The notes under the pieces: generated by a model
What the model saw: only the letters and a program-made list of their open reading frames with translations
What the model was told of the DNA's origin: nothing
The model's database searches: none
Part shown: positions 28,869-46,947 of the stretch, one piece after another
Position numbering within the stretch: position 1 is the first letter of the stretch
Layout: each line of letters starts with the position of its first letter
Made by a program: the position numbers and the translations under genes
DNA from: a bacterium
Lineage (GTDB): Bacteria; Auribacterota; Auribacteria; Auribacterales; Auribacteraceae
Assembly: GCA_018435605.1 (NCBI GenBank)
Contig: JAHDNF010000008.1
Location: 1,192-65,191 of the forward strand
Length of the DNA stretch: 64,000 nucleotides
Direction: 5' to 3'

Positions 28869-29515
28869 TATACGAATCCACCTTCCTGTAATTTTTGCAT
28901 CAAAGATTGATCAGAATTGGAGTTGCCGATTTTTTTAATGCAATTATATACGTATTTTCCGATCATATCGGATTCCAGATTGACCGGGTCGTTGGGTTTC
29001 TTGCATTGCAGGGTCGTATTATATAATGTATGCGGTATGATGTGTACCGTAAAAAACGACTTTTTTTTCTCCACTATCGTTAAACTGATTCCGTCAACGG
29101 CCACCGAACCCTTACATATCAGCATATCCAGAAAAGACGATGACGCGCGTATTTGAAGTATCCGGTCTGTTTGTCTCTGTTCGTTGGATTCTATGTAACC
29201 TACTTCGTCGACATGCCCCTGTACCAGATGTCCTCCCAAGCGAGAACCGAGTGTCAACGCCCGTTCAACATTTACGGTATTTCCATTCTTCAAATTGCCA
29301 AGATATGTTTTATCGAGTGTTTCTTTTTGGACAGTGAAAGTTAGTGTATCGGATGTAAATTTGCCGACCGTCAGGCATACGCCGTTTACGGCAATACTTT
29401 CTCCCATATCGATTTTTGTATTATCGAACGGCGATATGATTGTGAGTATGGCATACCCACGTTCCGACTTTATTTCCTTTACGGTAGCTATATTTTCCAC
29501 TAATCCAGTAAACAT
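28868..29515 (-). CDS. ribE: riboflavin synthase alpha chain
   Basis: MFTGLVENIATV... two lumazine-binding repeats, 215 aa. Confidence 0.85.
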   Translation of the reverse strand: MFTGLVENIATVKEIKSERGYAILTIISPFDNTKIDMGESIAVNGVCLTVGKFTSDTLTFTVQKETLDKTYLGNLKNGNTVNVERALTLGSRLGGHLVQGHVDEVGYIESNEQRQTDRILQIRASSSFLDMLICKGSVAVDGISLTIVEKKKSFFTVHIIPHTLYNTTLQCKKPNDPVNLESDMIGKYVYNCIKKIGNSNSDQSLMQKLQEGGFV

Positions 29516-29523
29516 TGCTTATC

Positions 29524-30654: not shown

Positions 30655-30659
30655 AAAAA

Positions 30660-31568
30660 CTATGCCTCAAAAAGAGCATGGACAAATTCTTTACTGTCAA
30701 AAGGAAGTAAATCATCCATGCTTTCACCGATACCTATGAATTTTACAGGTATATTTAATTCGTGTTGAATGCGTACAACAATACCGCCTTTGGCTGTTCC
30801 GTCAAGTTTTGTCAATATGATTCCGGTCAGGTTTAATGCTTCGTGGAAGGTTTTTACCTGAGGCACGGCATTTTGTCCGGTAACTGCGTCTATGGTGATA
30901 AGAATTTCATGGGGCGCACTGGGTATACGTTTTTCGACAGTCCGCTTAATTTTCTTGAGTTCTTCCATAAGATTTTTATTGGTATGAAGCCGTCCTGCAG
31001 TATCAACCAGCAGATAATCGGCGCCTCGCGCTTTGGCAGATTCCACAGCGTCGAACGCCACGGCCGCCGCATCGGCACCGTGTTGATGTTTGACAAGATA
31101 GGTTCCTGTGCGTTGTGCCCACACCTCAAGTTGCTCGATAGCCGCGCCGCGAAATGTATCGCATGCGGCTAGAACGACTTTCTTCTTGTCCGCAAGCAGG
31201 CGGTTGGCGAGTTTGGCAACAGATGTAGTCTTGCCGGTTCCGTTTACGCCAACAACAAACACTACTGTCGGAAAACCGGCAGGGGCTTTCCGTATAGCTG
31301 TATCATGGGTATTGATCATAGAAATAAGTTCTTGCCGTAATGAATCGAAAACCATAGATGAGTTTTGTTTTTCTTTCCGCGACATCTGTTTTTCTACATT
31401 GGCAACAAGGGTTGTAACTGTATCCATTCCCATGTCGGTCTGTATGAGTAACTCTTCTACTTCTTCATATATATCGTCGGTCAAAGAAGCCTGAAAAATC
31501 GATTTGAAGGCTGACGATAAATTATCACGTGTTTTTTTCAATCCCGCCGTGATTTTACTTATAACCAT
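30660..31568 (-). CDS. ftsY: signal recognition particle receptor FtsY (NG domain only)
   Basis: GVNGTGKTTSVAKLANRL, DTAGR, TKLDGTAKGG SRP-GTPase motifs; 302 aa. Confidence 0.85.
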   Translation of the reverse strand: MVISKITAGLKKTRDNLSSAFKSIFQASLTDDIYEEVEELLIQTDMGMDTVTTLVANVEKQMSRKEKQNSSMVFDSLRQELISMINTHDTAIRKAPAGFPTVVFVVGVNGTGKTTSVAKLANRLLADKKKVVLAACDTFRGAAIEQLEVWAQRTGTYLVKHQHGADAAAVAFDAVESAKARGADYLLVDTAGRLHTNKNLMEELKKIKRTVEKRIPSAPHEILITIDAVTGQNAVPQVKTFHEALNLTGIILTKLDGTAKGGIVVRIQHELNIPVKFIGIGESMDDLLPFDSKEFVHALFEA

Positions 31569-31577
31569 AAAAACTCC

Positions 31578-32402
31578 TTATTGTTGCCAGAGAGCTTGTT
31601 GCATGTTTTCGAGCATAGAGTAGGGTATAGGTATTCCACCGAGTTCGCGCCGGTCATGGCTGGCTCCGTGGAAATCAGATCCTCCTGTTTCCAGTAAACC
31701 GTACTGTTTCGCTATGGCTTTATATTTTTTCATATCACTGATACTGTGTTCGGAATGGATAACTTCCAGTCCGTCGAGTCCATCTTTGACGAATCGTTCG
31801 ATCAGGTGGTCTTTGAGATATATTGCGGGGTGGGCGAGTACTGCAAGTCCGCCGATCTCATGGATAAGGGATATACAATCTTTAACGGAAAATTTGAATT
31901 TTTTTACATACGCCGGACAGTTTTCGCCTATGTATCTTGAAAAAGCCTCATAGGCAGATGACACAAAACCTTTTTCCAATAATTTTTTTGCGATATGCGG
32001 CCTGCCGGGCGATGTGGTTTTGAGTTCTTTTAACAAAGTGTCGGCGCACAAGTCTACACCCAACAATTTGAGTTTGTCTGCGATTTTGTATATGCGTATA
32101 CGACGGTGCTGTCGCATTGTTTCGAGGTATTCGAGAAATCGCCTGTTGGTCCCGTCGATGAAATAACCTAGCAGGTGTATATCTTTTCCTTCCTCTTCAC
32201 AACTCATTTCTACGCCTGGCACAATAGTTACGCCAAGTTTTTTAGCTTCATTGAGTGCGCAGTAGTATCCTTCTATGGAATCGTGGTCAGTGATGGATAT
32301 TGCCGCCAGATTTTTTTGAGAAGCAAGACGGACAATTTCAAGAGGATCAAGCAGACCGTCGGATTTAGTAGAATGAATATGTAAATCGATATATTTTTCC
32401 AT
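31578..32402 (-). CDS. PHP-domain phosphoesterase (TrpH/YciV-like)
   Basis: IDLHIHSTKSDG...ISITDHDS PHP motifs. Confidence 0.7.
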   Translation of the reverse strand: MEKYIDLHIHSTKSDGLLDPLEIVRLASQKNLAAISITDHDSIEGYYCALNEAKKLGVTIVPGVEMSCEEEGKDIHLLGYFIDGTNRRFLEYLETMRQHRRIRIYKIADKLKLLGVDLCADTLLKELKTTSPGRPHIAKKLLEKGFVSSAYEAFSRYIGENCPAYVKKFKFSVKDCISLIHEIGGLAVLAHPAIYLKDHLIERFVKDGLDGLEVIHSEHSISDMKKYKAIAKQYGLLETGGSDFHGASHDRRELGGIPIPYSMLENMQQALWQQ

Positions 32403-32467
32403 CTGTTATCCTGTGCGTTAATTCAAGTGTATTAGTCTTTGATCGTTGAAACATACGCCGGTTGATT

Positions 32468-32923
32468 TTATAGTTTTTTTGGCGATGAGTTTCCGAAATC
32501 CTCTTTGATTTTATCAAGAATACCATTAACAAATTTGCCGGAATCGGGTGTACTGTATTTTTTAGCAATATCCACAGCTTCGTCGATAGAAACGACGGGG
32601 GGGATGTCATCAAGGTAAAGAATTTCAAATACCGCTATTCGTAATATATTTTTATCGATGATTGCCAGACGGGAAAAATCCCAGTTTGCAGTGTTTTTTA
32701 TAATAATTTGGTCAATTTGCGACATTTTATCGAGAATACCTTCGATAAGCGTACGTGTGAATTCAATGAAATGCGTATCGCCGGATTTGACTTCATCAAT
32801 TCGGTGTATCTCCGGTATGTATGCCATAAAATCGGCAAGCGATTTTTTATCAAAATTTTTACAACATTCGCAAGAATATAGAAATTGAAGTGTGATTTCT
32901 CTGCTAAGACGTCTTTTGCCCAT
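32468..32923 (-). CDS. nusB: transcription antitermination factor NusB
   Basis: RRLSREITLQFLY... NusB family, 151 aa, between ribH and ribD as in many rib operons. Confidence 0.8.
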   Translation of the reverse strand: MGKRRLSREITLQFLYSCECCKNFDKKSLADFMAYIPEIHRIDEVKSGDTHFIEFTRTLIEGILDKMSQIDQIIIKNTANWDFSRLAIIDKNILRIAVFEILYLDDIPPVVSIDEAVDIAKKYSTPDSGKFVNGILDKIKEDFGNSSPKKL

Positions 32924-32931
32924 ATTTACAG

Positions 32932-33396
32932 TTATATTTCGATTGCGAACAGATTGACCATTTCAATGGCGCTCAATGCCGCATCCGCTCCTTTATTTCC
33001 GGATTTAGTGCCTGCACGTTCGATAGCCTGTTCAAGAGTATCTGCTGTGATCAACCCGTATGTTATTGGTATCATGTACTGAAGGGAAACATGAGCAATG
33101 CCCTTTGTTACTTCGCCGCTTATATATTCGAAATGCGGAGTATTGCCTCGGATCAGAGCGCCTAGACAGATAATTGCGTCGAATTTTTTTGTGCTGGCCA
33201 GTTTTTGTGTCATCACGGGAATTTCGAATGCACCCGGAACCCTGAAAACGGATATATCGTTGTCGTCGACATTGTGCCTGATTAGAGTGTCATAGGCGCC
33301 GTCAAGCAGTTTAGATGTTATAAAATCATTGAATCGGCTGATCACGATTCCATACTTCTTGTTTTGTGAAACTAAATCGCCGTGATATATATGCAT
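32932..33396 (-). CDS. ribH: 6,7-dimethyl-8-ribityllumazine synthase
   Basis: [21 protein letters not shown]...; 154 aa. Confidence 0.9.
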
Positions 33397-33417
33397 GTTT
33401 TCCTCCGGGTATTTATG

Positions 33418-34644
33418 TTATGAAAACATATGTCCGAGTTTTTCTTTTTTTGTCTGTAAGTACCGAATATTGTGTTTGGTAGGTTCGCTAGCCAGTTCCA
33501 CTCTTTCTACAATATTTATATTGTATCCTTGTAATCCGATGACTTTTTTCGGGTTATTTGTCAGAAGTATAATATTTTTCAATCCGAGATCTACCAGAAT
33601 TTGCGCTCCGATACCGTAATCGCGCAAATCTGGTTCAAAACCCAGATGTTCGTTGGCTTCGACAGTATCGAGTCCTTTATCCTGCAGGGCGTATGCTTTA
33701 AGCTTGTTTATCAGGCCGATTCCGCGGCCTTCCTGGCGCATATATAAGATAACTCCTTTACCTTCCTTTGCAATCCGTTCCATTGCTTGGTGAAGTTGGT
33801 CGCCGCAGTCGCAACGCAGAGATCCGAAAACATCGCCTGTAAGACATTCGGAATGCACTCTGACCATTGTGTTTTCGTCTGGGTTAAGTGTGCCCATTAC
33901 AAGCGCTATATGTTCGCTGTTGCTTACTTCGCAACGGTACGCCAGCATCTTGAAATTGCCGTATTGTGTAGGCAGTATAGTTTGAGCCACACATTGAACA
34001 AGTTTTTCAGTTCTTCGCCGGTATTCGATGATCTGGGCTATGGAGCACATTTTCAGTCCGAATTTTTTCTTGAATTTTATCAATTCAGGTAACCGCGCCA
34101 TAGTTCCGTCATCATTCATTATTTCACAAATCGCTCCGGCAGGATACAATCCTGCCAGTTTGGCAAGGTCAACCGCCGCTTCGGTGTGTCCGGCGCGCCG
34201 TAAAACCCCGCCTTCAACCGCTCTTAAAGGAAAAATATGTCCTGGAGTTACAAACGAACTTTGATTTGCGTATGGATTGACCAGCATTTGAATTGTTTTG
34301 GCTCTGTCATGAGCGGAAATACCGGTAGTAACACCGGTTTTTGCGTCAACCGATACGCTGAAAGCAGTTTTGTGCATATCGCGGTATCTAGGTACCATCG
34401 GGTCTAAACCGAGGAAATCTAACCTTTCGCTGAGCATAGGCACGCAAACCAATCCGCGTGCGTGAGTTACCATAAAATTGATATCGTCAGGTTTGACAAG
34501 CGATGCGGGCATGACTAAATCGCCTTCATTTTCGCGGTTGGTGTCGTCAGTGACTATGACCATTTTGCCGCAACTTATGTCTTCGAGCAATTCTTCTATC
34601 GGTTCGAACGTCTGGTCGTCGGATTTCTTTGGCAAATCATTCAT
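33418..34644 (-). CDS. ribBA: bifunctional 3,4-dihydroxy-2-butanone-4-phosphate synthase / GTP cyclohydrolase II
   Basis: DHBP synthase N-domain (RENEGDLV) plus GTP cyclohydrolase II C-domain ([15 protein letters not shown]). Confidence 0.9.
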
Positions 34645-35019
34645 GTCAAAACACTCTCCTTTTTAAAAAGGATTTATTATATGGTATAACGGCAAGATTA
34701 GTCAATCTCAAATAACGGGAAATAAGGGAAAATAAGTAAAGAAACCCCGTTTTTAAAAAAATCCGATTTCAAATACGCTCAATTGAATCGAAATTCATAA
34801 AATACTTGAAAAATATTATGATTGTCATAACATATTATTTTAGGTTATCGAGAAAAATGTAAACCCGCTGGTATTTTTGACGGCTTTAATAAAAACTGCC
34901 GGTTTTGCGACATAATAATATAGTTTTAAATTAACAGCTTAACTTTAACTGTCTCGTTCCGATAAAAATATCAGTTATATATCGTTTATTTCCAGCCGTT
35001 TCACTAATCAAGGCATATT

Positions 35020-36207
35020 ATGAATGTTTTAACTATAACCAGTATGTTTCCAAGCAAAGCACAGCCGTTTCACGCGGTGTTCGTTCGCAACCGCGTCACG
35101 CGAGTCGCCAAACTGTGCAATATGAAAATTATCGTTCCTATTCCCTATTTCCCTTTGACAGGATTCTTGAAACGATATGCCAACAGAAAATATATCCCGA
35201 AACAGGATATTATCGAAGGTATCGAAGTTTATTATCCGAGATTTATATCGGTTCCGAAATTTTTCAAACCGCTTGACGGATTTTTTCTATTTATATCATG
35301 CTGGCTGTTGTTGAAAACAACCTTGAAAAATTTTGATTTCGATATTATAGACTCCCATCTGGCATTTCCAGACGGATTTGCCGCCGTATTGCTCAAAAAA
35401 TGTTTTGCCAAACCGGCTACAATTACCCTTAGAGGGCATGATATAAACGATTTGCCGGAATATCCGATACGGTTCAGACAGGTCAAATACGCACTGCTCA
35501 AAGCCGACAGGGTATTCAGCGTGGCAAAAGCCCTCAAAGATGCCGCAGTAAATTTTGGTATTGACGCAGACAAAATAATGGTAAGTTCCAACGGAGTCGA
35601 TCAGTCCGTATTTCATCCGGCTGATATGATTTCTATGCGCAAAGAACTTAATTTGCCTGCAGATAAGAAAATCATAGTATCTGTAGGGCATCTTGTAGAA
35701 CGCAAAGGATTTCATATTCTTATCAAGGCGATTCGCAATATGATCGATTCAGGATTGAAAGACGTGTATCTGATAATCATCGGCGGTCCAGGTGAAGAGG
35801 GTGATTTTTCAGGGGAACTAAACCGTTTGATAGAAAAACTCGATCTTAAAGGTCATGTCACCATGCCCGGGCCTCAACTAAATAAGGATCTATACAAATG
35901 GTATAACTGCGCTGATATTTCGTGTCTTGCCAGTTCTAAAGAAGGATGGGCAAACGTTCTGCTCGAATCTTTGGCATGCGGAAAACCGGTTGTGGCTACC
36001 AATGTATGGGGTACGCCAGAGGTAATTTCTTCTGCGGAATACGGGGTTCTAACCGAACGCAATCCAGAAGCGTTGGCGACTGCGCTTACCTCAGCTCTTG
36101 ACAAACGCTGGAATACTGATGATATTATTGCATACGCGCGCAAACATACATGGGAAAATGTAGCATCAAATATAATTGAGCAATTTAAAACATTGATAAA
36201 AAAATAA
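35020..36207 (+). CDS. glycosyltransferase, group 1 (GT4)
   Basis: EGWANVLLESLACGKPVVATNVWGTPEVI GT4 C-terminal motif. Confidence 0.75.
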   Translation: MNVLTITSMFPSKAQPFHAVFVRNRVTRVAKLCNMKIIVPIPYFPLTGFLKRYANRKYIPKQDIIEGIEVYYPRFISVPKFFKPLDGFFLFISCWLLLKTTLKNFDFDIIDSHLAFPDGFAAVLLKKCFAKPATITLRGHDINDLPEYPIRFRQVKYALLKADRVFSVAKALKDAAVNFGIDADKIMVSSNGVDQSVFHPADMISMRKELNLPADKKIIVSVGHLVERKGFHILIKAIRNMIDSGLKDVYLIIIGGPGEEGDFSGELNRLIEKLDLKGHVTMPGPQLNKDLYKWYNCADISCLASSKEGWANVLLESLACGKPVVATNVWGTPEVISSAEYGVLTERNPEALATALTSALDKRWNTDDIIAYARKHTWENVASNIIEQFKTLIKK

Positions 36208-36224
36208 AGATACAGGAACCGGAT

Positions 36225-37358
36225 ATGCCCGAATCAGATATTCATATAATGCAGGTTTTACATACCCTTGAAGTCGGCGGAGCGGAAAAACTCGCATACG
36301 ATATTTCAAACAGTTTTGATAAATCATTTCAATTTTCGTTTTTTTGTCTGGATGCGCTGGGATATTTGAGCAATCTTATCAAACAGGAAGGCGGAAACGT
36401 CTATTGTTTCGGAAGAAAAGACGGGTGGGATTTCGGACTTATAAAAGAATTTGCCGAACTGCTGACCGCTAAAAAAGTCGATATTGTACACGCTCATCAG
36501 TATACGCCATACTTTTATGCTGTGCTCGCATCGTTTTTCAGTAAAAGGCATCCTAAAGTAATTTTTACGGAACACGGCAGGCATCAACCGGATAAAGTAC
36601 GCTGGAAACGAGTGGTCTTCAATAAAATATTCCAACATCTAACCGCCGCTTACACAGGTGTCGCTCGATTCAGTAAAGACTGTCTTGTAGAATTCGAGAA
36701 AATTCCGGAAAACAAAATTGATGTTATATACAATGGAATAGATCTTGAACGTTTTCCAAAGACATTTGACAAGGATAAAATACGAAAATCACTGGGATTT
36801 GAAGCGGACAAAACGCTGGTAGGTATAATCGCGCGACTTGATCCCATAAAAAACCACTCCGTTTTGATTGAGGCGATATCGTTATTGAAAAACCAGTTTC
36901 CGGACATACAGCTTATCGTCGTAGGCGAAGGACCGATGTTGCAGGAACTCAAAAATCTCGTTTCAACATTAGCTATCGACGACACCGTCATTTTTACCGG
37001 ATTGCGCAAGGATGTTCCGCGCATACTTATGGCGCTCGACATCTTCGTACTGCCATCTTCTACTGAAGCCATGTCGGTTACCCTGCTCGAAGCAATGAGT
37101 GCCTCTTTGCCGGTAGTGGCTACCGATGTCGGAGGAAATCAAGAAGTAGTGATACCCCACATAACAGGCGAGTTGGTACAGCCGAAAGACCCGCACCAAC
37201 TGGCAGACGCTATCGAATCTATAATCTCCGCTCCTCAAAAAGCGGAACAAATGGGCAAAGCCGGTCGGGAAAGAGTTGAAGATATGTTCACATTCGACCG
37301 TATGATAGAACAATACAAAAAACTTTACCTTAAAATTACTGGCAAACAAAAATTATGA
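36225..37358 (+). CDS. glycosyltransferase, group 1 (GT4)
   Basis: EAMSVTLLEAMSASLPVVATDVGGNQEVV. Confidence 0.75.
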   Translation: MPESDIHIMQVLHTLEVGGAEKLAYDISNSFDKSFQFSFFCLDALGYLSNLIKQEGGNVYCFGRKDGWDFGLIKEFAELLTAKKVDIVHAHQYTPYFYAVLASFFSKRHPKVIFTEHGRHQPDKVRWKRVVFNKIFQHLTAAYTGVARFSKDCLVEFEKIPENKIDVIYNGIDLERFPKTFDKDKIRKSLGFEADKTLVGIIARLDPIKNHSVLIEAISLLKNQFPDIQLIVVGEGPMLQELKNLVSTLAIDDTVIFTGLRKDVPRILMALDIFVLPSSTEAMSVTLLEAMSASLPVVATDVGGNQEVVIPHITGELVQPKDPHQLADAIESIISAPQKAEQMGKAGRERVEDMFTFDRMIEQYKKLYLKITGKQKL

Positions 37359-37936
37359 AAAATATTCTCAAAACGGTTCTCAATTTAATATCTATAATCT
37401 TAGTCATGCCTTGGTACTTGTGGTATCGCTTTGAAAAATTGTTTATTCATACCGATCATCCTTTTCAGGGAATGAGCCAGTTTTTCGCTTTATTTCCGGG
37501 ACTGCTCGGAAACTATTTGCGAAGAGCATTCTATTATCTTGCTCTGCCAAAATCTTCATTGGACTGCAATATCTGTTTCGGAACAATTTTATCAAGCGAA
37601 AACGCGCAAATAGGAAAACGAGTCTATATCGGCACAAACTGCACTATTGGCGATGTCAATATCGGAAACGATGTACTGCTCGGCAGTAACGTGGATATTA
37701 TGAACGGCTCTAAGCAACATTACATTGACAATATAGACATACCTATAAGAGAACAGGGAGGCGAATACCCAAAAGTCACTATCGGCGAAGATACATGGAT
37801 CGGCAACGGAGCAACGGTATTATGTAATGTCGGAAAAAAATGCGTCATCGGCGCAAGGACTTTGGTAATAAAACCTATCGACGATTTTTCCATCGCTGTA
37901 GGCGTACCCGCGCGTATCGTAAAGAAAAGGAAATAA
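37355..37936 (+). CDS. hexapeptide-repeat (LbH) O-acetyltransferase, WcaF-like, with N-terminal TM segment
   Basis: IGKRVYIGTNCTIGDVNIGNDVLLGSNV...IGNGATVL hexapeptide repeats; 4-nt overlap with the upstream GT. Confidence 0.7.
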   Translation: MKNILKTVLNLISIILVMPWYLWYRFEKLFIHTDHPFQGMSQFFALFPGLLGNYLRRAFYYLALPKSSLDCNICFGTILSSENAQIGKRVYIGTNCTIGDVNIGNDVLLGSNVDIMNGSKQHYIDNIDIPIREQGGEYPKVTIGEDTWIGNGATVLCNVGKKCVIGARTLVIKPIDDFSIAVGVPARIVKKRK

Positions 37937-37941
37937 ACTTT

Positions 37942-39834
37942 ATGTGCGGAATTACAGGTATTTTCCATATCGACGGCAAACCGGTCAACCGAAATGTTCT
38001 GGCTGAAATGAACAGCACAATGTCACATAGGGGTCCGGATGAAAGCGGTTTTTTTATCGACAACTTTTTCGGACTAGGCCATAGACGCCTTAGCATCATC
38101 GATTTGAGTACCGGCAAACAGCCTATGTGCAATGAGGATGAATCGATATGGATTGCGTTCAACGGTGAAATATTCAACTTTATGGAGCTGAAACATCAAC
38201 TCGAATCTAACGGTCATCGCTTCAAAACCAATTCCGATACCGAAGTAATTATTCATCTTTACGAACAATACGGCGATCGGTCGGTGGAAAAACTACAGGG
38301 CATGTTCGCCTTCGCATTATGGGATAAGAACCAGCAAAAGCTGTTCATCGCACGCGATCGTATCGGTATCAAACCATTATATTACTTTTTCGACGGCAGA
38401 GTTTTTTTATTCGGATCCGAAATTAAACCTATACTCGCTTACGGCAAAAATATTCCGCTCGATATGGATTATCAAGCAATACACGATTATCTGACATTCG
38501 GCTTTATCCCGGGTGAAAAAAGTATTTTCAAACATATCCGTAAACTCGAATCAGCCCATACGTTGAGCATAAGTAAAAGCCTTCCTGTCCCGAAGATAAC
38601 CGAATATTGGGATATTTCGTTTGCCGATAAAACAGACGTTACGGAACACCAATTGATAGAGCAAATTTTAGAACATCTCAAAAATACCGTTCAATCGCAT
38701 CTGATCAGTGACGTGCCGCTCGGATCGTTCCTGAGCGGCGGTATAGATTCCAGCGCTGTGGCGGCCATGATGGCAACCATAGTAAAAGATCCGATAAAGA
38801 CATGTTCTATCGGTTTTGATCACCAAAATTTTTCGGAATTGCCGTACGCTCGTGAAGTAGCTAAGTTATACAAAACCGATCATTCTGAGTATATCGTTAC
38901 TCCGGACGCCCTAAACATACTGGACACAATATTATATTATTATGACGAACCGTTTGCCGATACATCTGCCTTGCCGAGTTATTATCTATCAAAGATGACG
39001 CGAGAAAAGGTTACGGTAGCTTTATCCGGCGATGGTGGAGATGAGAATTTCGCCGGATACCGCAGGTACATATTCGATTTATTTGAAAACCGTGTCCGTG
39101 CAATTATGCCGAAATTCGTACGAAAACCGTTTTTTTCCATGCTTGGCGCAGTGTATCCGAAAGCGGACTGGCTACCGCAGGTTTTCAGGGCAAAAACCAC
39201 ATTTCAAAATTTAGCGCTTGATCCGTTCGACGCCTATTTCAGCAGTGTATCTGTATACCCTGAAATTTTTCTCAAAAAAATCTTAAATCGCGATTTTCTT
39301 GCATCGCTGGACGGCTATTCATCACAAGGAATAATGAAAAAATATTTTGAAAAGGCGGACAGCGATCATCCGCTCGACAAAATCATTTATACGGAAATCA
39401 AAACTCTTTTACCGGACGATTACCTAGTCAAAGTTGACAGAGCGAGTATGGCAAATTCTCTGGAGGTTCGCGTACCATTGCTAGATCACAAATTTATGGA
39501 GTTCGCCGCAACTATACCTGCGGAAAAAAAACTTAATGGATTTTCCACGAAATACATATTTAAAAAAGCTCTGGAAAAATTTTTACCGGATACCATATTA
39601 TACCGTAAAAAACAAGGTTTTGAAATGCCTATAGACGGATGGATACGCAAAGAACTCAAAAATCCGTTCCATGACGTTTTGTTTGCAGACAACTCATTTA
39701 TATCAAACATTATAGATAAAACATACCTCGAAAAGATATGGCAACAGCATCAAAGCGGGGTGAAGTTATACGGCAACAATCTGTGGCTTATCTTCATACT
39801 CGAATCTTGGCATAAAAAATATATATCGAAGTAA
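37942..39834 (+). CDS. asnB: asparagine synthase (glutamine-hydrolysing)-family amidotransferase
   Basis: N-terminal MCGITGIF with Cys2 nucleophile and SGGIDSS PP-loop. Start placed at the internal ATG (37942) rather than the longest-ORF start (37840), which overlaps the acetyltransferase. Confidence 0.85.
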   Translation: MCGITGIFHIDGKPVNRNVLAEMNSTMSHRGPDESGFFIDNFFGLGHRRLSIIDLSTGKQPMCNEDESIWIAFNGEIFNFMELKHQLESNGHRFKTNSDTEVIIHLYEQYGDRSVEKLQGMFAFALWDKNQQKLFIARDRIGIKPLYYFFDGRVFLFGSEIKPILAYGKNIPLDMDYQAIHDYLTFGFIPGEKSIFKHIRKLESAHTLSISKSLPVPKITEYWDISFADKTDVTEHQLIEQILEHLKNTVQSHLISDVPLGSFLSGGIDSSAVAAMMATIVKDPIKTCSIGFDHQNFSELPYAREVAKLYKTDHSEYIVTPDALNILDTILYYYDEPFADTSALPSYYLSKMTREKVTVALSGDGGDENFAGYRRYIFDLFENRVRAIMPKFVRKPFFSMLGAVYPKADWLPQVFRAKTTFQNLALDPFDAYFSSVSVYPEIFLKKILNRDFLASLDGYSSQGIMKKYFEKADSDHPLDKIIYTEIKTLLPDDYLVKVDRASMANSLEVRVPLLDHKFMEFAATIPAEKKLNGFSTKYIFKKALEKFLPDTILYRKKQGFEMPIDGWIRKELKNPFHDVLFADNSFISNIIDKTYLEKIWQQHQSGVKLYGNNLWLIFILESWHKKYISK

Positions 39835-41124
39835 TTATTCTGAAGAAGGTTGTGATTGTCCGTCCTTTGTCATTGCATCGCCTGTGCGTACTTCAGACTC
39901 AAGGCTCAAAATAGGCAACCCGTGAAATGTAAGCATGTCGGAAAAAATGCATCCTACCGTCTCGATAACTTTGCGAAACGGAGTGTTGCGCACATGCGCC
40001 CAACGCATATCCTCCAATCCTTGTTGCGGAGTTTTTATGTTGTACAGATACGGTAGCCGAAAACCGTCGTCTTTAGACCCGGCGGCATGCACCCTTAACC
40101 ATGCCTCACCTGTTGGCATCACATCTGTAATATAACTTAGGGTCACCTGCGCGTTATCGAATACCGTAGTAGTAAGTTTTCTACCGATATCCGTAGTGCC
40201 TATTGTCGCGTCCGGTACGGCTTCCATGGCGTTAAGCGTAGCCGCGAACAGATTTTCTCCGGCATTGAGCATGGCTTGTGGTATACCTAGAATAATATTT
40301 TTCACAAATCCATCGAGAAAAACTTTTTTGCCGGCGTATCCGATTTTTTGAATCGCGCTTTCAGGCGGATTCTCCGTTTCATTTTTTCCGAAATTCAACC
40401 CATCGAATACATTTTTCACAAAATTACCGAGCGTCTTTAATAATCCGGTTTTTTGTGCGGTTTGCATCCGGCCTTCCTTATCGATATACGTATATTTCGC
40501 TCCTTCACCTAGATTGTCAAAAGCGTATTTCAAATTCGCGGCGGCGTCCTGCAGATCTTTGCCTACACGGTTGCCAAAATCGGAATGATCATATTCCGGA
40601 TTATATTCCATAGACCCATCCGGCTTTAAAAAATAAAAATCGCCGCCGGGTATGTTGAACAGCTGATCTTGTTTATAGATTTGCATATCATTCAGGCCGC
40701 GAGCCTCTTGAGGAGTATAAGCCGGAGATCCCTCCTCGCCTTTTGGTATTCTTCGCGAATGCTGTGCCTGAATCTCGCGAAATTCTCTGATTGATTTCGC
40801 TCTGTATTGCGATGCGTTATATGGCGCAGGCCATGCGCGCTGATCTTGATCTTCTTGTATCTGCCCGGACTGACGGTCAGGCAAATGTTCGACAACTTCT
40901 GATCTTAGAGGAAAACGTTCACGAGCCTTTATTTGCGGCCATTCACTGCTTTCTTCCTTTACAGGCGTCTTCTCTTTAGACTTGGACTGCGTTTCGCGTA
41001 AAGTTTCTTCAAAACTCTTCTGCGGCGGTTTTGACACAGGTACTTTATTTTGCTGAATTTGATTCCACTGGTTAAGCCCTGAAATACCGTCTGTTTGTAT
41101 ACTGTTTACCTGTACATCACCCAT
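39835..41124 (-). CDS. hypothetical protein (429 aa), no recognisable domain, no signal peptide
   Basis: Good GGAGAA Shine-Dalgarno 6 nt before the ATG. Uninterrupted ORF. Stop codon directly abuts the asnB stop (tail-to-tail, 0-nt spacer). Confidence 0.55.
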   Translation of the reverse strand: MGDVQVNSIQTDGISGLNQWNQIQQNKVPVSKPPQKSFEETLRETQSKSKEKTPVKEESSEWPQIKARERFPLRSEVVEHLPDRQSGQIQEDQDQRAWPAPYNASQYRAKSIREFREIQAQHSRRIPKGEEGSPAYTPQEARGLNDMQIYKQDQLFNIPGGDFYFLKPDGSMEYNPEYDHSDFGNRVGKDLQDAAANLKYAFDNLGEGAKYTYIDKEGRMQTAQKTGLLKTLGNFVKNVFDGLNFGKNETENPPESAIQKIGYAGKKVFLDGFVKNIILGIPQAMLNAGENLFAATLNAMEAVPDATIGTTDIGRKLTTTVFDNAQVTLSYITDVMPTGEAWLRVHAAGSKDDGFRLPYLYNIKTPQQGLEDMRWAHVRNTPFRKVIETVGCIFSDMLTFHGLPILSLESEVRTGDAMTKDGQSQPSSE

Positions 41125-41335
41125 AATGTTCTCCGATCGCTTGCATACGTTTAAGTCATATACTTAACAAAGCATATTTCGTTCCAGACTTTTTTGCTAA
41201 ATTTATGCTAAAATGTGTTTGAATAACATTCAATGTCATCTATAATGCTGTTCTGGTATGATATGTGATTGGTTGAATATATCATTGCCCGACACAGTCA
41301 AAATAATATAAACGCAACTGCAAAGGAGTATTTCT

Positions 41336-42004
41336 GTGCGATTTTTTAAACATTGTTGTGTAGTTTTTTTCATATTTTTGTCAGTAGCTAAATGCGTTTC
41401 TTTCGCAGAAGAATATGCGGCACCCGAAATAAACGACGAAAATATTGCGGAAGTTTCCGAACCTGACAACGGCGATCTTCAACAAAGCGTTCAGTCCGGA
41501 TCAATACAGGAGCGTCACAGAGTTTACACCAAACGGCTTAATTATTATGAAGAACAAATCGAAGCGGATAATGCTGACATAGAGCTTATTCTAGAAGCCG
41601 CAAATTTGGCCTCATTCATGGCAAAACACGATAAATCGATCAAATTTTATAGAAAAGCCATTCGCGAACTGCATGAATCCGACGGATACCCTATAGAAAA
41701 AATTAGAGAAACTTACAAAATTCTCATCAACTTATATCTGAGAGAACAAAAAAGCGATATGGCTATCGCCACATTTAAACAAATGTGCGACAACGAACCG
41801 GATAATATAGACTTGAATCTTGAATTCGCTCAATTCTTACGGGATAACGGCTTCCCGCGCCGAGCGTTTCTTGAGTACCGGAAGCTACTGTCTATGCAAC
41901 CGGGTAACCTAAAGATTATAGACATGATAATGCAATTACATGCTCAGGGGCATATCAGTAAACAGGAACTGGAATCTATTATATCGCAAGAGGATAAACA
42001 ATAA
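41336..42004 (+). CDS. secreted TPR-like helical-repeat protein (hypothetical)
   Basis: Signal peptide MRFFKHCCVVFFIFLSVAKCVSFA|EE. The C-terminal part reads as helical repeats. Confidence 0.5.
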   Translation: MRFFKHCCVVFFIFLSVAKCVSFAEEYAAPEINDENIAEVSEPDNGDLQQSVQSGSIQERHRVYTKRLNYYEEQIEADNADIELILEAANLASFMAKHDKSIKFYRKAIRELHESDGYPIEKIRETYKILINLYLREQKSDMAIATFKQMCDNEPDNIDLNLEFAQFLRDNGFPRRAFLEYRKLLSMQPGNLKIIDMIMQLHAQGHISKQELESIISQEDKQ

Positions 42005-42145
42005 ATTTTTTTGCCGGTATTGAAATATTAAAATTTTCTTAGTAAAAAATGAAGAAAATATGTAATTTTTTCATAATTTGGTTGTTTAAGAAGGTGTAAC
42101 TTGTAAGTATTTTTGTACTCTAAAAATAAAACTGTGATGTGAACA

Positions 42146-43168
42146 ATGTTTAATTGCGCGACGGTAAAAAATTATTTATCCAGATACTATGATAATGAAT
42201 GCCCGAAGAACATTCATGACGAGATAGCAAAGTATCTGAATTCCTCTGAAAAATGCGGGGAGTGCCGGCAGTGCGTAAAAATATTGGATGATTACGAATA
42301 TGTACGCATGGCTCTGTCTCATCTGCCGGAATATAATCCGTCTAAAGAATATAAGAATACTTTTTCAGAGAAACTTGCCGCCTGCAAAAACGAACAAAAT
42401 TCTGTAGCGCGCCCTGTTTTCAAAAAAAAGAGAATTGCCTACGCTTATCTTTCTGCCGCGGCGATGATTGTTTTTTTTCTTGGAACGTTACTGTTTACTA
42501 CTCCGACTATTCAACCGGACAAATCCGTCCCTATAATTACTTATTTACAGGGAAAAGCATACATAGCTGACACATCTTCGGATACACCCCGTTTAGCTAT
42601 GGTTAAAAATATCATAAACAAGGGTGATACTATAGCAACAGGCCCTCATTCAAAAATAGATATCGAAATGAAAAATAAATTTAAAATAACCCTTAGGCAA
42701 AATTCCGTATTGAAGGTAGAAGAATTGACGGAAGAAGCTGATCGTCTTAGAATAATATGCAGGTTGGAGCGAGGCGGCATACTTGCCGATGTGACAAAAC
42801 ATGAAAATTCATCCGATTTTCAAATACTTACCGAACTGGTAGAAGTTGCTGTAAAGGGAACCCAATTCTCTGTAGAAACGGAAGGTCATGACGATAATAA
42901 AAAAGTTACGGTCGCCGTATTCGAGGGAGCTGTGGCAGTAAAACAAGCACAAGCCAAGCACAGCGAAAATTCTTATGCGGAACATCTAATCCGCGAGAAT
43001 TATAAAATGGTTTTCGCAAACGATGTTACAGCCATACCACAACAACTTAACGATGATGAAATCGAATCTTTCTGGGAAGTATACGAAATCGGAAACCGCT
43101 CTACAGATATAAACTATCAAGCCTCTTCGTCCGATAACAAAGATATATATCGGTCACAGTCTAAATAA
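42146..43168 (+). CDS. membrane anti-sigma factor-like protein: N-terminal zinc finger (zf-HC2-like), single TM, periplasmic FecR-like domain
   Basis: C..(x)..H...CGECRQC in the first 45 aa. TM helix IAYAYLSAAAMIVFFLGTLLF. FecR pattern GDTIATGPHSKIDIEM...ITLRQNSVLKV...VAVKGTQFSVE. Confidence 0.6.
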   Translation: MFNCATVKNYLSRYYDNECPKNIHDEIAKYLNSSEKCGECRQCVKILDDYEYVRMALSHLPEYNPSKEYKNTFSEKLAACKNEQNSVARPVFKKKRIAYAYLSAAAMIVFFLGTLLFTTPTIQPDKSVPIITYLQGKAYIADTSSDTPRLAMVKNIINKGDTIATGPHSKIDIEMKNKFKITLRQNSVLKVEELTEEADRLRIICRLERGGILADVTKHENSSDFQILTELVEVAVKGTQFSVETEGHDDNKKVTVAVFEGAVAVKQAQAKHSENSYAEHLIRENYKMVFANDVTAIPQQLNDDEIESFWEVYEIGNRSTDINYQASSSDNKDIYRSQSK

Positions 43169-43293
43169 TCTCTGTGATATAATCGTAAAACAACTATTGC
43201 TTGCATTCGGCTACCGTTTGCAGTATATATTTTTGCACACTCAGAGCTAGCGGACATTATATATTTTTGTAAATAGCGGAGAGATATAAATAA

Positions 43294-44211
43294 ATGCTCG
43301 ATATGTTTTTTTACCTGCACAGAAAAGAACTTGTTATTATTGGCGGGAGCACGCTTTTTATCGCCGTAACCTGTTTCCTGATTTACTGGATTGGCCGGCG
43401 CTGGCTTACGCGGTATAATGTTCAGAAAAATATCCGCAGAATAGAGTTTTACATGTCAGGCGGCGATAAATCATCCGATTTATGTTGTGAACTGGGAAAT
43501 AACTACATGTATATCAACGATTTTGAGAATGCCGAAAAATGGTTTCGCGAAGCGCTCGACGTCGACACCGACAATATGGAAGCATATCTGTCTCTAGCCG
43601 AACTGTATAAAAAATCGCAAGAATATGATAAACTCCGTGACATTTATTACCGTCTTTCAGAACTCAACCCATACGACTACGATATTTTACGCGAACTGGG
43701 CTGGGCATATTATTATTGTGAAGATTTTGAGAGCGCCATAAATACCTTCCTTTTGGTAAAACGCATGGCTCCGGGTGATATACACACACGTTATTCGCTC
43801 GGATTACTCTACCTTAACCAAAACGACAAAATAAAGGCTATTCAGGAATACCGTGAACTTAAGAAACTTGACGATCAAAAAGCCGATGAATTATTCGATT
43901 ACATATACCCTGAAGATCAGGGAATAACTATGGAAAGCGGCGGTCTCGGCGACGACGATGGCGAAGAGCACATCACTCTCAAACAATCTATGGAAGAAGA
44001 TGCCAGAATGCAAAACAATCAGCAAAAAGTACAGGAAACATCTGCTCAGCGACGGCGAGTTCGAACACCGGCGCAATCTCCTGTTTCCCGCATAACGCCT
44101 TCTCCCAAAACTCCTGCGCCGCGACGCAAGCAAACATCTTCACCAACTGTTACAAACAAACAATCCCAGCCATCGTCTAAAAAAGCTTCTAACAAAGAAG
44201 TTGAATCCTGA
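43294..44211 (+). CDS. membrane-anchored TPR protein with C-terminal basic, Pro/Ser/Thr/Gln-rich low-complexity tail
   Basis: N-terminal TM (LVIIGGSTLFIAVTCFLIYWI), about 4 TPRs, and a C-terminal roughly 90 aa that is low-complexity (RRRVRTPAQSPVSRITPSPKTPAPRRKQTSSP...). Confidence 0.5.
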   Translation: MLDMFFYLHRKELVIIGGSTLFIAVTCFLIYWIGRRWLTRYNVQKNIRRIEFYMSGGDKSSDLCCELGNNYMYINDFENAEKWFREALDVDTDNMEAYLSLAELYKKSQEYDKLRDIYYRLSELNPYDYDILRELGWAYYYCEDFESAINTFLLVKRMAPGDIHTRYSLGLLYLNQNDKIKAIQEYRELKKLDDQKADELFDYIYPEDQGITMESGGLGDDDGEEHITLKQSMEEDARMQNNQQKVQETSAQRRRVRTPAQSPVSRITPSPKTPAPRRKQTSSPTVTNKQSQPSSKKASNKEVES

Positions 44212-44258
44212 GCGAATCGCGTTATAATAGTTCACATCTATCTTATATAAGCTAATAC

Positions 44259-44921
44259 ATGGATAAGGTTATGGATTTTTACGTTCATGAAATTTTCAAA
44301 TCGATTCAAGGCGAATCCAGCTACGCGGGTTTCCTTTGCACTTTTGTAAGATTCGCCGGCTGTAATCTAAAGTGTGCTTACTGCGATACGGTAGAAACTC
44401 AAAACAGTGATATAGCTTTATCCATGTCTATGGAGGAAATACTTCAAAGTGTAAATAGGCTGTCATGCCATCTGGTTCTGCTTACCGGGGGCGAACCTCT
44501 TTTACAGAATCATATCATACCTTTATGTAACGAACTACAAAGACTAAATTATACTATTCTTATAGAAACTAACGGCACTATGGGTATAGAAGACTTCAGC
44601 GATAACATACGATTCATCATGGATGTCAAATGCCCCGGAAGCGCTATGGCAGGATCTTTCGCGGAAAAAAATTTATCATTTATAAAACCTGTCGACGAAC
44701 TTAAATTTGTGATAAGCGATCGCGACGATTACCTGTGGGCAAAACAATACCTTATTCAACATAATCTTACGAATCGTTGCGGACTGATCTTTTCTCCAGT
44801 ATGGGGCAAAATACCTTTATCAGATATCGCCGAATGGATAATTGAAGATAACTTGTCGCATGTACGATTACAAGTCCAGCTTCATAAATTGATATGGGGA
44901 CCTGAAGCCAAAGGAGTCTAA
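44259..44921 (+). CDS. queE: 7-carboxy-7-deazaguanine synthase (radical SAM)
   Basis: [29 protein letters not shown]. Confidence 0.85.
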
Positions 44922-44923
44922 AA

Positions 44924-45613
44924 ATGAAAAATGCGGTTGTCCTGCTAAGCGGAGGACTCGATTCGTATACTACTGCTAATGTTGCCAAATCAATGAACTA
45001 CACCATATATGCGCTGAGTTTCGATTACAGACAACGACATAACATCGAAATACAATCTGCCGCAAATATAGCGCGTCAGATCGGCGTAAAAAAACATATT
45101 ATAATTCCGCTCGACATTTTCTCAATTGCCGGTAAATCCGCCCTGACTGATTCCATAGCGGTTCCTGAAAACCGTTCCGAAGAAGATATGAGCAAAGATA
45201 TTCCGGTTACCTATGTGCCTGCAAGAAACACTGTTTTTTTATCCCATGCGCTCTGCTGGGCGGAAACTATTCCTGCGTACGATATTTTCATCGGGGTCAA
45301 CGCCGTGGACTACAGCGGATACCCAGATTGCCGTCCCGAATATATCGCCGCATTCGAAAAAATGGCAAACCTTGCGACAAAAGCAGGAGTCGAAGGGCAC
45401 CGCATAACCATCCATACTCCGTTGATCAATATGAAGAAAAACGAGATAATACGAAAAGGAATTGAGCTTGGATGTGATTATTCTCTGTCCATCAGCTGTT
45501 ATCAACCCGCGCTTAACGGTGCGTCATGCGGCATATGTGATAGTTGTCATATCAGAAAAAAAGGATTTAAAGAAGCGGGAATTCCAGATCCGACGCCCTA
45601 TATGGAGTCATAA
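44924..45613 (+). CDS. queC: 7-cyano-7-deazaguanine synthase
   Basis: [17 protein letters not shown]-loop and C-terminal Zn cysteines [10 protein letters not shown]. Confidence 0.85.
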
Positions 45614-46147
45614 TTATTTAGAACTAAAAATTTTCGCAAGCATATTATTAAAGACCGTATGCAAATCTTCATCTTCAGCTAAAATTACTATTCTTTTAAA
45701 CGCAGTCTTTCCCAGACAATAATCTATTATAGATCGAATCATGTTTTCCGCCACAGTATAAGGCGATATATGGGCGTGTTCCGTAATAAACGGTATAATG
45801 GCGACCGACAACACTCGTTTGCTTTCCGCTTGTTCTAAAGCTCCATTTGTGCAAGGTGTTATATATTCCTCCAGTATACGCCCGTCCTGACCTGAGCACG
45901 CTACATGAATAAGACACTCATACGGCAGGTTACCCGCCGAAGTGATCACCGAAGCGCCTAGCTCAACCGGCCCCATCTGCATGGCCTCTTTTTCTACAAC
46001 CGATCCTGCCTGTTTTTTTATGGCGTTAGTGATATCCGATCCCATCCAGAAGTAATTATTAGCGGGAAACACCAGAGCTTCACATAACGCCGTGTTAAAA
46101 TGTTCCTGCCGTATTTCAAGAACTGTTTTGCCCAATTTTACATGCAT
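45614..46147 (-). CDS. macro-domain protein (ADP-ribose / O-acetyl-ADP-ribose binding, YmdB-like)
   Basis: ALVFPANNYFWMGSDITNAIKKQAG resembles the macro-domain A.VNAAN..L.GGGGV..AI...AG motif; 177 aa. Confidence 0.6.
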   Translation of the reverse strand: MHVKLGKTVLEIRQEHFNTALCEALVFPANNYFWMGSDITNAIKKQAGSVVEKEAMQMGPVELGASVITSAGNLPYECLIHVACSGQDGRILEEYITPCTNGALEQAESKRVLSVAIIPFITEHAHISPYTVAENMIRSIIDYCLGKTAFKRIVILAEDEDLHTVFNNMLAKIFSSK

Positions 46148-46323
46148 TTTACACCTCTGCGTTATTAATGTTTTCTATTTCCGAATAATATTTTATTCAT
46201 ACCTATATCTTAAAGTAATCCGCCCTAGAAATATATGAAAAAATATTTTTTAGCGCTTACTCGAACTCAATTTTTATTATTTTATCATTTTTTTATGGCC
46301 ATGTTTGGCATTTTCTTCAATCT

Positions 46324-46332
46324 ATGTTATAA
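46324..46332 (+). promoter_or_regulatory. extended -10 element (TGtTATAAT) upstream of the lspA-like gene
   Basis: tgttataat lies 43 nt before the AAGGAG Shine-Dalgarno and the ATG at 46375. Confidence 0.3.
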
Positions 46333-46374
46333 TGAAATTAAGCGGACAACGTAACCACAATAAGGAGTTACTTT

Positions 46375-46947
46375 ATGAGATTATTGGCAGGTAAGTTTCG
46401 CTCAGGGATGATTGTTTTAGGAATTACTCTTTTAATCGATCAAGCAACCAAATTCTTCGTCAACACAATCAATCTAAGTGATCCTACAACAGCAAATTAC
46501 CACATTATAAGCATGTTCGAAAAAATTTACAACGAAGCCGGCGTCCATTTTTTTCTTATCAATGTCAGACACTACTTCGAAATTTCACAGCTTATATTGC
46601 GCGTTGTTATTTTGCCTCTTATCGGTATTTACATTGCTTATTACATAATAAAGCATCGTATTACATCTAAATGGGTACTTCTGGGTATAGGTATGCTTAC
46701 CGGAGCATTATTCGGTAATGCTTTCGATATAGTTTTCAGAGGCTATGTTATAGACTGGATCGGCTGTTCCTTCTTTATGAACAGCTTTGAGCTGAATTAT
46801 GCCATTAATCTGGCAGATATTTTTGCGGTTTGCTCGGCTCCTTTTATTCTTATTGGCATCAGGAAAAACACTCTTAGTCTTCCTGTTGTTTTCGATAAAG
46901 AAAGAGCCGTTCCGGTATCGATATTCGACGATTCCAATGCGGCATAA
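46375..46947 (+). CDS. lspA: lipoprotein signal peptidase II-like membrane protein (divergent)
   Basis: 4 TM helices. GALFGNAFDIVFRGYVIDWI resembles the LspA GGA.GN..DR...G.VVDF motif, and NYAINLADIFAVCSA resembles FNVADSAI. Confidence 0.5.
   Translation: MRLLAGKFRSGMIVLGITLLIDQATKFFVNTINLSDPTTANYHIISMFEKIYNEAGVHFFLINVRHYFEISQLILRVVILPLIGIYIAYYIIKHRITSKWVLLGIGMLTGALFGNAFDIVFRGYVIDWIGCSFFMNSFELNYAINLADIFAVCSAPFILIGIRKNTLSLPVVFDKERAVPVSIFDDSNAA

Follow-up and report, generated by a model that had tools for sequence, protein, structure and literature searches.

A 64-kb stretch of DNA from a metagenome-derived member of the uncultured phylum Candidatus Auribacterota (contig JAHDNF010000008.1; the whole stretch is referred to here as the window) harbors a block of four genes, the third of which, gene 3, encodes a single-pass membrane protein with an anti-sigma-type N-terminal domain and a FecR domain. 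No gene for a sigma factor of the extracytoplasmic function (ECF) type is found near gene 3 in the window or at the orthologous loci of the phylum, whereas the nearest relatives outside the orthologous group are encoded, in both cases examined, by genes that overlap an ECF sigma gene. The best reading of these results is that gene 3 encodes a class-I FecR-domain anti-sigma factor, derived from the zinc-associated anti-sigma (ZAS) type, that acts in trans on an unlinked ECF sigma factor and has tetratricopeptide repeat (TPR) proteins as partners, and we give this reading about an even chance of being correct. The block is a lineage-wide variation on a well-known anti-sigma signalling scheme, not a new kind of system. 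The genes of the block and those that directly follow it are listed below.

39835-41124, (-): gene 1, 429 aa
41336-42004, (+): gene 2, 222 aa, starts at GTG, with AAGGAG placed 8 nt upstream
42146-43168, (+): gene 3, 340 aa
43294-44211, (+): gene 4, 305 aa
44259..45613, (+): queE (radical SAM) and queC by Pfam, constant downstream neighbours of the block, read as synteny

Absence of a linked sigma factor gene

A reading of the window made from sequence only had delimited the same four genes, and the open reading frame (ORF) listing gives all four at exactly these positions. That reading had also noted that no ECF sigma gene adjoins gene 3, which holds for the whole window and for seven orthologous loci. 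These loci are the window/L001, L002/L005, L003, L004, L006/L007 (Ca. Auribacter fodinae), L012/L015 and L017, with L004 and L017 interrupted by contig ends. Pfam scans of the called genes of the 64-kb window found no Sigma70 domain, and a six-frame search of the window and of every Auribacterota locus with an ECF hidden Markov model (HMM) returned no ORF of the sigma-70 family. The HMM was built from what we take to be the sequences of RpoE, FecI and SigW; as a positive control, the same HMM scores two outgroup sigma genes at approximately 1e-32. The sigma-free span covers 40 kb upstream and 20 kb downstream in the window and 7-10 kb in the seven loci. Loss of the sigma gene in this genome only, with an ECF sigma gene still adjacent in relatives, had been named as the alternative, and no such gene was found at any of the seven Auribacterota loci. 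Given that the sigma gene is absent from all seven, the unlinking is lineage-wide and not a loss peculiar to this genome.

The ancestry of gene 3 is revealed by its next-best full-length relatives. These proteins are approximately 470-630 aa long (about 480 aa in the nearest of them), match with E values of 1e-22 to 1e-13 and align over profile positions 3-320. They combine zf-HC2, FecR (in some cases with PEGA) and a C-terminal TPR region in one polypeptide, and include P0139, P0144 and about 20 others, the nearest full-length relatives outside the orthologous group. They share with the gene 3 group the order of zf-HC2, transmembrane (TM) helix and FecR domain, as well as the Gly-Thr (GT) motif of the latter. 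Unlike gene 3 of the window, which has neither feature and is flanked by separate TPR genes, the fusions carry the C-terminal TPR region and an overlapping ECF sigma gene. The overlap involves the 3' end of the sigma gene in both contexts examined (sigma genes at L016:4231-5004 and L018:4427-5011), and the encoded sigma factors contain Sigma70_r2 and r4_2 and match TIGR02937 at 89-100 bits. Because the nearest outgroup fusions overlap ECF sigma genes, the gene 3 family descends from ordinary sigma-coupled anti-sigma factors. Orphan class-I anti-sigma domains (ASDs) have already been postulated for ECF sigma factors without a neighbouring one (PMC7406223).

Membrane layout and FecR domain of gene 3

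In the gene 3 protein, one TM helix joins a cytoplasmic Cys-rich helical N-domain to a periplasmic FecR domain, and the tail at the C-terminus is conserved. Its features are as follows.

42146..42385, (+): ASD-like cytoplasmic domain, residues 1-80
42254..42274, (+): C37-x2-C40-x2-C43 cluster, seen in alignments, which has an insertion of 3-6 residues and stands in place of the H-x3-C-x2-C of orthologues
42434..42502, (+): TM helix by hydropathy, residues ~97-119, preceded by KKKR
42626..42934, (+): FecR domain (PF04773), residues 161-263, E = 2.4e-15, 57.2 bits against a cutoff of 24
42857..42862, (+): G238-T239 in KGTQFSV, invariant in six aligned orthologues

FecR is the sole Pfam family reported for gene 3. 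The charges flanking the TM helix (+2 to +5 on the N-terminal side and -2 to +1 on the C-terminal side in the six orthologues compared) indicate an N-in topology with a periplasmic FecR domain. The earlier description of gene 3, a single-pass protein of the anti-sigma type whose FecR domain is periplasmic, is supported; the FecR match scores 57 bits, and the protein has one TM helix in the N-in orientation.

The E. coli FecR sequence used for comparison, which we take to be the authentic one, agrees with the published length and with the published positions of G181 and of R79-R80. Gly238-Thr239 of gene 3 aligns with LGTEFTV of this protein as the sequence-level counterpart of Gly181-Thr182, and cleavage of gene 3 at this position is predicted. 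Gly181-Thr182 is the self-cleavage site of E. coli FecR (PMC12036975). A weak match to the PDB entries 4m0n/4m0h ("putative anti-sigma factor", E of approximately 0.1) spans the Gly-Thr motif of gene 3. The two entries differ at the site aligned with Gly-Thr (GASF against GGSF), as if the self-cleavage site of a FecR-like periplasmic domain had been engineered.

Gene 3 resembles FecR, FoxR and PupR in its periplasmic PF04773 domain, in the succession of N-domain, TM helix and periplasmic part, and in the Gly-Thr dipeptide. However, its N-domain is of the ZAS type and not the FecR type. The Pfam scan of gene 3 detected neither a FecR-type N-terminal domain nor a C-terminal FecR_C/DUF4974-type (transducer-binding) domain, and KKKR is found before the TM helix in place of a twin-arginine. 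Moreover, neither a FecI-like sigma factor nor a TonB-dependent transducer was found among the genes of the window or at the orthologous loci. The FecR-like protein LIC12756 of Leptospira interrogans is the anti-sigma factor for LIC12757, which is an ECF sigma factor, and functions without a TonB transducer with a signalling extension (PMC13118517). The size and layout of LIC12756 (N-terminal domain, residues 1-73; TM helix, 74-93; periplasmic part to residue 350) are near those of gene 3, but LIC12756 is encoded beside its sigma factor and gene 3 is not. The best NCBIfam matches of the periplasmic part are Lsa33 and LipL45, FecR-domain proteins that are not anti-sigma factors. All NCBIfam scores lie below the curated cutoffs, with 53.1 against 420 bits for Lsa33, 41.6 against 350 bits for LipL45 and 42.5 against 200 bits for the anti-sigma family LIMLP_03685 (NF047528). 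Gene 3 is not a member of NF047528, since its weak match is far below the 200-bit family cutoff.

A word-seeded search of a 5.8-billion-sequence collection returned only four full-length relatives of gene 3, and an exhaustive HMMER search at E <= 1e-30 gave representatives of nine clusters, with lengths of 314-340 aa. Scans of genome and metagenome collections with the gene 3 profile found the same lineage only, including a 69%-identical relative on a Candidatus Auribacterota metagenome-assembled genome (MAG) contig. The gene 3 protein itself occurs as an identical copy on a Logan contig and on an NCBI MAG contig. A member of its 90%-identity cluster is named "FecR family protein" at NCBI (MDX9702457.1, Candidatus Auribacterota bacterium).

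The Cys-rich N-terminal domain

Gene 3 had been described as having an N-terminal zinc finger, and this part of the description stands only by way of its orthologues. The zf-HC2 scores of the orthologues, against a cutoff of 22.2, reach 36.0 bits in L012 (E = 7e-9), followed by 29.2 bits for P0135, 24.4 bits for P0128 and 21.4 bits for L007, and the orthologues also match the RsrA-type anti-sigma model at an E value of approximately 2e-7. The N-termini of distant orthologues read C-x~25-H-x3-C-x2-C (e.g., QHLSQCSKC). N-termini were compared across 12 family representatives, four of which (P0001-P0004) form the window sub-clade. The canonical H-x3-C-x2-C is present in six of the eight representatives outside this sub-clade, and the other two lack the N-terminal segment. 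Within the sub-clade, the position of the His is occupied by Y, H, Y and F, respectively, and an insertion of 3-6 residues yields C37-x2-C40-x2-C43.

The six aligned orthologues all have C4, C19, C40 and C43, whereas C37 is confined to the window sub-clade. C19 is an extra Cys in a D-x-E-C motif that is common to all Auribacterota members; the sigma-coupled relatives mostly have Leu at this position. Sequence identity of the N-terminal domain within the sub-clade is 58-68%, near the whole-protein value; therefore, the domain is still constrained. The zinc site of the sub-clade has probably switched from a Cys-His-Cys-Cys to an all-Cys set of ligands.

The likeness to ZAS proteins (RsrA, ChrR, RslA and RsiW) includes a short N-terminal cytoplasmic helical domain with Cys ligands, the matches of the orthologues to both zf-HC2 and the RsrA model, and a single-pass N-in topology, as in RsiW and RslA. 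Unlike these proteins, gene 3 of the window lacks the His of H-x3-C-x2-C, has the insertion with a third Cys and is not co-encoded with a sigma gene; the binding of sigma and of zinc by gene 3 is predicted.

The TPR proteins encoded by genes 2 and 4

Gene 2 had been read as a secreted TPR-like protein, in agreement with a hydrophobic signal-like segment at its N-terminus and a match to TPR_14 just above the cutoff (29 versus 23.5 bits). Gene 2 is presumed to be a periplasmic TPR protein. The gene 2 orthologues of all seven loci have a hydrophobic N-terminus followed by A-x-A-like sites. The orthologue at L017:6217-6882(+) starts with MKSYVFILMLIGCS, which is lipobox-like (L-I-G-C); gene 2 of the window has no lipobox, and the constant neighbours of the block include lspA, the gene for signal peptidase II. 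The C-terminal TPR region of the fused relatives is of the YbgF/CpoB/BamD-like type and follows the periplasmic FecR domain. Gene 3 of the Auribacterota lacks this region, and the secreted TPR protein is in every case encoded directly upstream, an arrangement that suggests gene 2 is the split-off counterpart.

Gene 4 had been described as a TM-TPR protein with a basic Pro/Ser-rich tail, and the following features were found.

43330-43395, (+): TM helix, residues ~13-34
43477-43881, (+): TPR domain, residues ~62-196
43906-44208, (+): acidic then basic P/S/T-rich tail, residues ~205-305, low complexity

The TM helix, the TPR domain (TPR_8 at 51.5 bits, TPR_2 at 51.2 bits and TPR_1 at 40.4 bits, all above cutoff) and the tail are thus present in the window protein, but the tail is not conserved, as it is missing in the distant orthologues of 212-213 aa (L007 and L017). 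The TPR domain and tail are probably cytoplasmic, given the positive-inside rule and the charges flanking the TM helix (0 or -1 on the N-terminal side and +4 to +6 on the C-terminal side in the six orthologues compared). LapB/YciM has an N-terminal membrane anchor followed by cytoplasmic TPRs, an architecture that gene 4 appears to share, given its predicted topology, and gene 4 has weak LapB matches (37 bits). The resemblance is architectural only: the matches are far below the LapB cutoffs of 363-670 bits, and gene 4 has a variable basic tail instead of a C-terminal rubredoxin-type domain.

Proposed signalling model

It is proposed that gene 3 would still use its N-terminal domain to sequester an ECF sigma factor encoded elsewhere in the genome. 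The periplasmic FecR domain would sense an envelope cue jointly with the secreted TPR protein gene 2, which would stand in for the C-terminal periplasmic TPR region of the fused relatives. The signal would lead to proteolysis like that of FecR and RsiW, with self-cleavage at G238/T239, site-1 cleavage and site-2 intramembrane cleavage, and the sigma factor would be freed. Gene 4, as a membrane-tethered cytoplasmic TPR protein, may serve as an adaptor on the cytoplasmic side, and gene 1, from an unrelated and widespread family, is probably a neighbour under separate regulation. The architecture of gene 3, its conservation, the lack of a nearby sigma gene and the ancestry of the family are established here; sigma binding, the TPR contacts, cleavage and the metal site are the predicted part of the model.

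Several results weigh against this model. The partner sigma factor was not found in the window or at the seven loci. The zinc finger ascribed to gene 3 of the window fails in that protein itself, which has no match to zf-HC2 (PF13490), either as a whole at E <= 1 or with residues 1-95 at E <= 0.1. The window protein also lacks the H-x3-C-x2-C zinc signature; Y32 occupies the canonical His position and C4 is present. The AlphaFold2 (AF2) model of gene 3, built from four full-length homologues, draws four N-terminal helices but has a predicted local distance difference test score (pLDDT) of only 41.8, too poor to serve as structural evidence for the anti-sigma fold. In a comparison with the C-terminal TPR region of the fused relatives, the hhalign probability is 7% for gene 2 and 89.5% for gene 4. 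The higher score of gene 4 is probably due to its canonical TPRs. Since hhalign shows no specific similarity for gene 2, the proposed split of the TPR region is an argument from architecture. Finally, genes 2, 3 and 4 each have their own conserved upstream block.

It is possible, but rather unlikely, that gene 3 was repurposed after losing its sigma factor and now controls none. Its Cys-rich domain would dock on another partner, most plausibly gene 4, and the three proteins would form an envelope module that is structural or has an output other than sigma, like the FecR-domain lipoproteins of Leptospira. The sigma-free span of the window and of the seven loci is consistent with this possibility, as are the remodelled zinc motif of the window sub-clade and the invariant C19 (DxEC) that is specific to Auribacterota and missing from most sigma-coupled relatives. 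The similarity of the periplasmic part to Lsa33 and LipL45 points in the same direction, as does gene 4, which shows the highest conservation in the block, with 48-52% identity to its distant orthologues, and which comes after gene 3 in every case. However, most orthologues keep the canonical anti-sigma zinc motif, and the contact between gene 3 and gene 4 is hypothetical. Furthermore, some known ASD groups include members both with and without zinc and bind sigma all the same (PMC7406223).

Conservation and surroundings of the block

The block lies, as the sequence-only reading had placed it, between polysaccharide genes on the upstream side and queE and queC on the downstream side. The upstream genes encode two glycosyltransferases of the GT4 family, a hexapeptide transferase and an AsnB-type amidotransferase, and the downstream genes are queE, queC, a macro-domain gene and lspA. 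Co-conservation of the four genes across relatives was confirmed, with the common order of gene 1(-), TPR gene, ZAS-FecR gene, TM-TPR gene, queE, queC, macro(-) and lspA in all seven loci. Genes 2, 3 and 4 keep this order over loci that span identities down to approximately 30% for gene 3. Identity to distant orthologues is 44-45% for gene 1, 30-32% for gene 3 and 27-30% for gene 2. None of the four proteins has a match in PADLOC. At L012:5766-5894(-), a 42-aa ORF is called between the ZAS-FecR and TM-TPR genes in this one lineage, and no counterpart is seen in the 125-nt gap between genes 3 and 4 of the window.

A tie of the block to the neighbouring glycan locus, which had been suggested, is unsupported, as the adjacency is not conserved among the orthologous loci. 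AsnB and gene 1 are separated by four additional genes in L002, the neighbours differ in L003, and efp comes in between together with five to six further genes in L007, L012 and L017. What stays constant is gene 1 to one side and queE-queC-macro-lspA to the opposite side. The adjacency to queE-queC is treated as synteny, and queE has a promoter-like site of its own. In the window (28167-46947), a thyX-ribE-ribD-ftsY-PHP-nusB-ribH-ribBA cluster lies on the minus strand upstream of the segment from GT4 to lspA; in L002 and L004 the same cluster, from thyX to ribBA, follows lspA on the plus strand. This arrangement is consistent with an inversion of the GT4-to-lspA segment of approximately 12 kb (35.0-47.0 kb) in one lineage.

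The conserved order could also be synteny without function. The four genes would then be no functional unit and would occupy a housekeeping stretch that rearranges slowly (efp, queE, queC, macro, lspA and fusA), with gene 3 acting alone or with an unlinked sigma factor and with the TPR genes and gene 1 as bystanders. The housekeeping neighbours are equally syntenic, and genes 2-4 have separate conserved upstream blocks and gaps of 125-141 nt. The sigma-coupled outgroup loci contain no gene 1 homologue, and neither a gene 2-like nor a gene 4-like neighbour appears among their listed genes. In other phyla, homologues of gene 1 are found in unrelated contexts, and gene 1 has its own sigma-54-type motif. 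However, the order of genes 2, 3 and 4 outlasts rearrangements that alter both flanks, namely the side switch of the rib cluster and the insertions between AsnB and gene 1, and FecR and TPR regions are joined in one polypeptide in the fused relatives. We consider synteny without function unlikely.

Upstream motifs

The candidate regulatory features upstream of the genes are as follows.

41168..41187, (-): candidate sigma-54-type -24/-12 motif CTGGAACGAAATATGCTTTG, GG-N10-GC with TGCTT, upstream of gene 1
42050..42100, (+): conserved AT-rich block TGAAGAAAATATGTAATTTTTTCAT ... TTGTTTAAGAAGGTGTAAC, containing an imperfect inverted repeat, upstream of gene 3
43201..43229, (+): sigma-70-type promoter-like motif TTGCAT-N17-TATATA, upstream of gene 4
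44201-44228: promoter-like TTGAAT-16-TATAAT of queE

Promoters of the sigma-54 type have a -24/-12 geometry of GG-N10-GC with a T before the GC. The sequence (T/A)GGAAY-N5-RTGCTTW, on the strand of gene 1, is the only invariant block of the intergenic region between genes 1 and 2 in five aligned loci, with a pattern search adding a sixth locus (L017). In all six it lies 44-68 nt before the ATG of gene 1. Although GGN9TGCTT is not enriched in the window (8 matches versus 6.3 expected), the copy upstream of gene 1 is the only match that is both intergenic and correctly oriented. Gene 1 is probably regulated separately, in a sigma-54-dependent manner, as judged from this motif. The window itself encodes neither rpoN nor an enhancer-binding protein. 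An alternative assignment of GGAAC as an ECF -35 box was rejected because no conserved -10 element (CGT or TCTRA) is found at 16-17 nt, while TGCTT is invariant.

The AT-rich block upstream of gene 3 is kept in six aligned loci and, by inspection, in the seventh (L017). Its RNA hairpin is weak (-2.5 kcal/mol), and AT-rich inverted repeats are common in this DNA. A search of Rfam at E <= 1 over positions 41100-44300 gave no match, hence neither a preQ1 riboswitch nor any other known RNA. In the Ca. Auribacter fodinae lineage, TGGTCTG[G/T]ACTTTGC[T/A]T is found upstream of the ZAS-FecR gene (L007:7018-7171(-) and L017:6883-7000(+)). TGGTCTG[G/T]ACTTTGC fits the spacing of a sigma-54 -24/-12 element and could equally be a sigma-70 -35 box; it is not present in the clade of the window. 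The motif upstream of gene 4 is kept as TTG[CA]A[TC]-N16-18-TA-rich in the six loci examined there. No intrinsic terminators were found between genes 2, 3, 4 and queE.

A rewiring of the ZAS-FecR protein to an output other than sigma-70, in which an envelope signal would pass from the FecR domain and gene 2 through the Cys-rich domain to gene 4 and so control sigma-54-dependent expression of the divergent gene 1, is very unlikely; if true, it would represent a new envelope-to-sigma-54 circuit and the first functional handle on the LysM-linked family of gene 1.

The gene 1 family

Gene 1, recorded at NCBI as hypothetical protein RBU23_05345 (MDX9702455.1, Candidatus Auribacterota bacterium), had been called an orphan, a claim contradicted by 245 homologues at E <= 0.01 in several phyla. 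Its C-terminal ~250 aa are 40-50% identical to proteins of Scalinduaceae, Brocadiaceae, other Planctomycetes and Pseudomonadota, all of which are annotated as hypothetical or "LysM domain-containing". The family HMM matches gene 1 at 1e-137, with one copy in each locus. An N-terminal LysM domain is present in 26 of 120 homologues, with no other Pfam domain, and 114 of the 120 have no N-terminal hydrophobic segment. Gene 1 itself has no hydrophobic segment, and its N-terminal ~145 aa are rich in Q, E, S and P and modelled with low confidence. The domain common to the family is

39925..40686, (-): residues ~147-400 of gene 1, with 24 columns that do not vary among 120 aligned sequences

and contains the motifs YKxDQLLxNPGGD, RVGKDL, VPDATIGN, FDNGQV and VRNTPFRKxIET. 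The AF2 model has a pLDDT above 90 over residues ~145-400 and is mainly helical, with one 50-residue helix. Foldseek found no match to this model at E <= 0.001 in PDB or BFVD, a profile search of PDB sequences gave no match, and gene 1 belongs to no Pfam, NCBIfam or PADLOC family.

Outside the Auribacterota, gene 1 homologues occur in unrelated contexts, including next to bactofilin and mreB in Scalindua, after mlaEFDCA and beside cheR. On the Candidatus Scalindua contig RBMW01000004.1 (L008:8001-9571), a 355-aa homologue is followed after 51 nt by a bactofilin gene; mreB lies upstream on the opposite strand, past a gene for a 261-aa protein, and many TPR genes are found around. The Scalindua context hints at a cytoskeleton or cell-wall role for the family. 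No bactofilin gene was found in the window. The most interesting by-product of the analysis is this unnamed family, whose members occur in Auribacterota, anammox Planctomycetes and Pseudomonadota; with a confident but unmatched predicted fold and LysM fusions, it would merit a Pfam entry and functional study.

Other features of the window

Two large ORFs, 52-3264(+) of 1070 aa and 7985-12793(-) of 1602 aa, have no Pfam match at E <= 1e-4, and between them a 998-aa protein (4787-7783) consists nearly entirely of TPR repeats. At 19690-21615(-), a membrane protein that resembles O-antigen ligases (Wzy_C) has TPR repeats fused to its C-terminus; its gene borders a second glycan cluster, which encodes a WecA-type transferase, GT1, RmlD and RmlA. 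TPR modules are recurrent on envelope proteins in this genome. A 6S RNA (Rfam RF00013) is located at 56347-56530(+), with 51.4 bits against a gathering score of 46.4. The true start of the MgsA/RarA ORF (GTG at 56492) is probably further downstream, since the 3' end of the 6S RNA overlaps its first ~40 nt.

Significance

ECF sigma and anti-sigma pairs are usually found and classified by gene adjacency, and the Auribacterota clade shows how this rule fails. In this phylum, an anti-sigma-derived sensor is unlinked throughout, the TPR module is found in separate genes and the zinc site appears to have been remodelled. The block provides a concrete case for testing "orphan" class-I anti-sigma domains.

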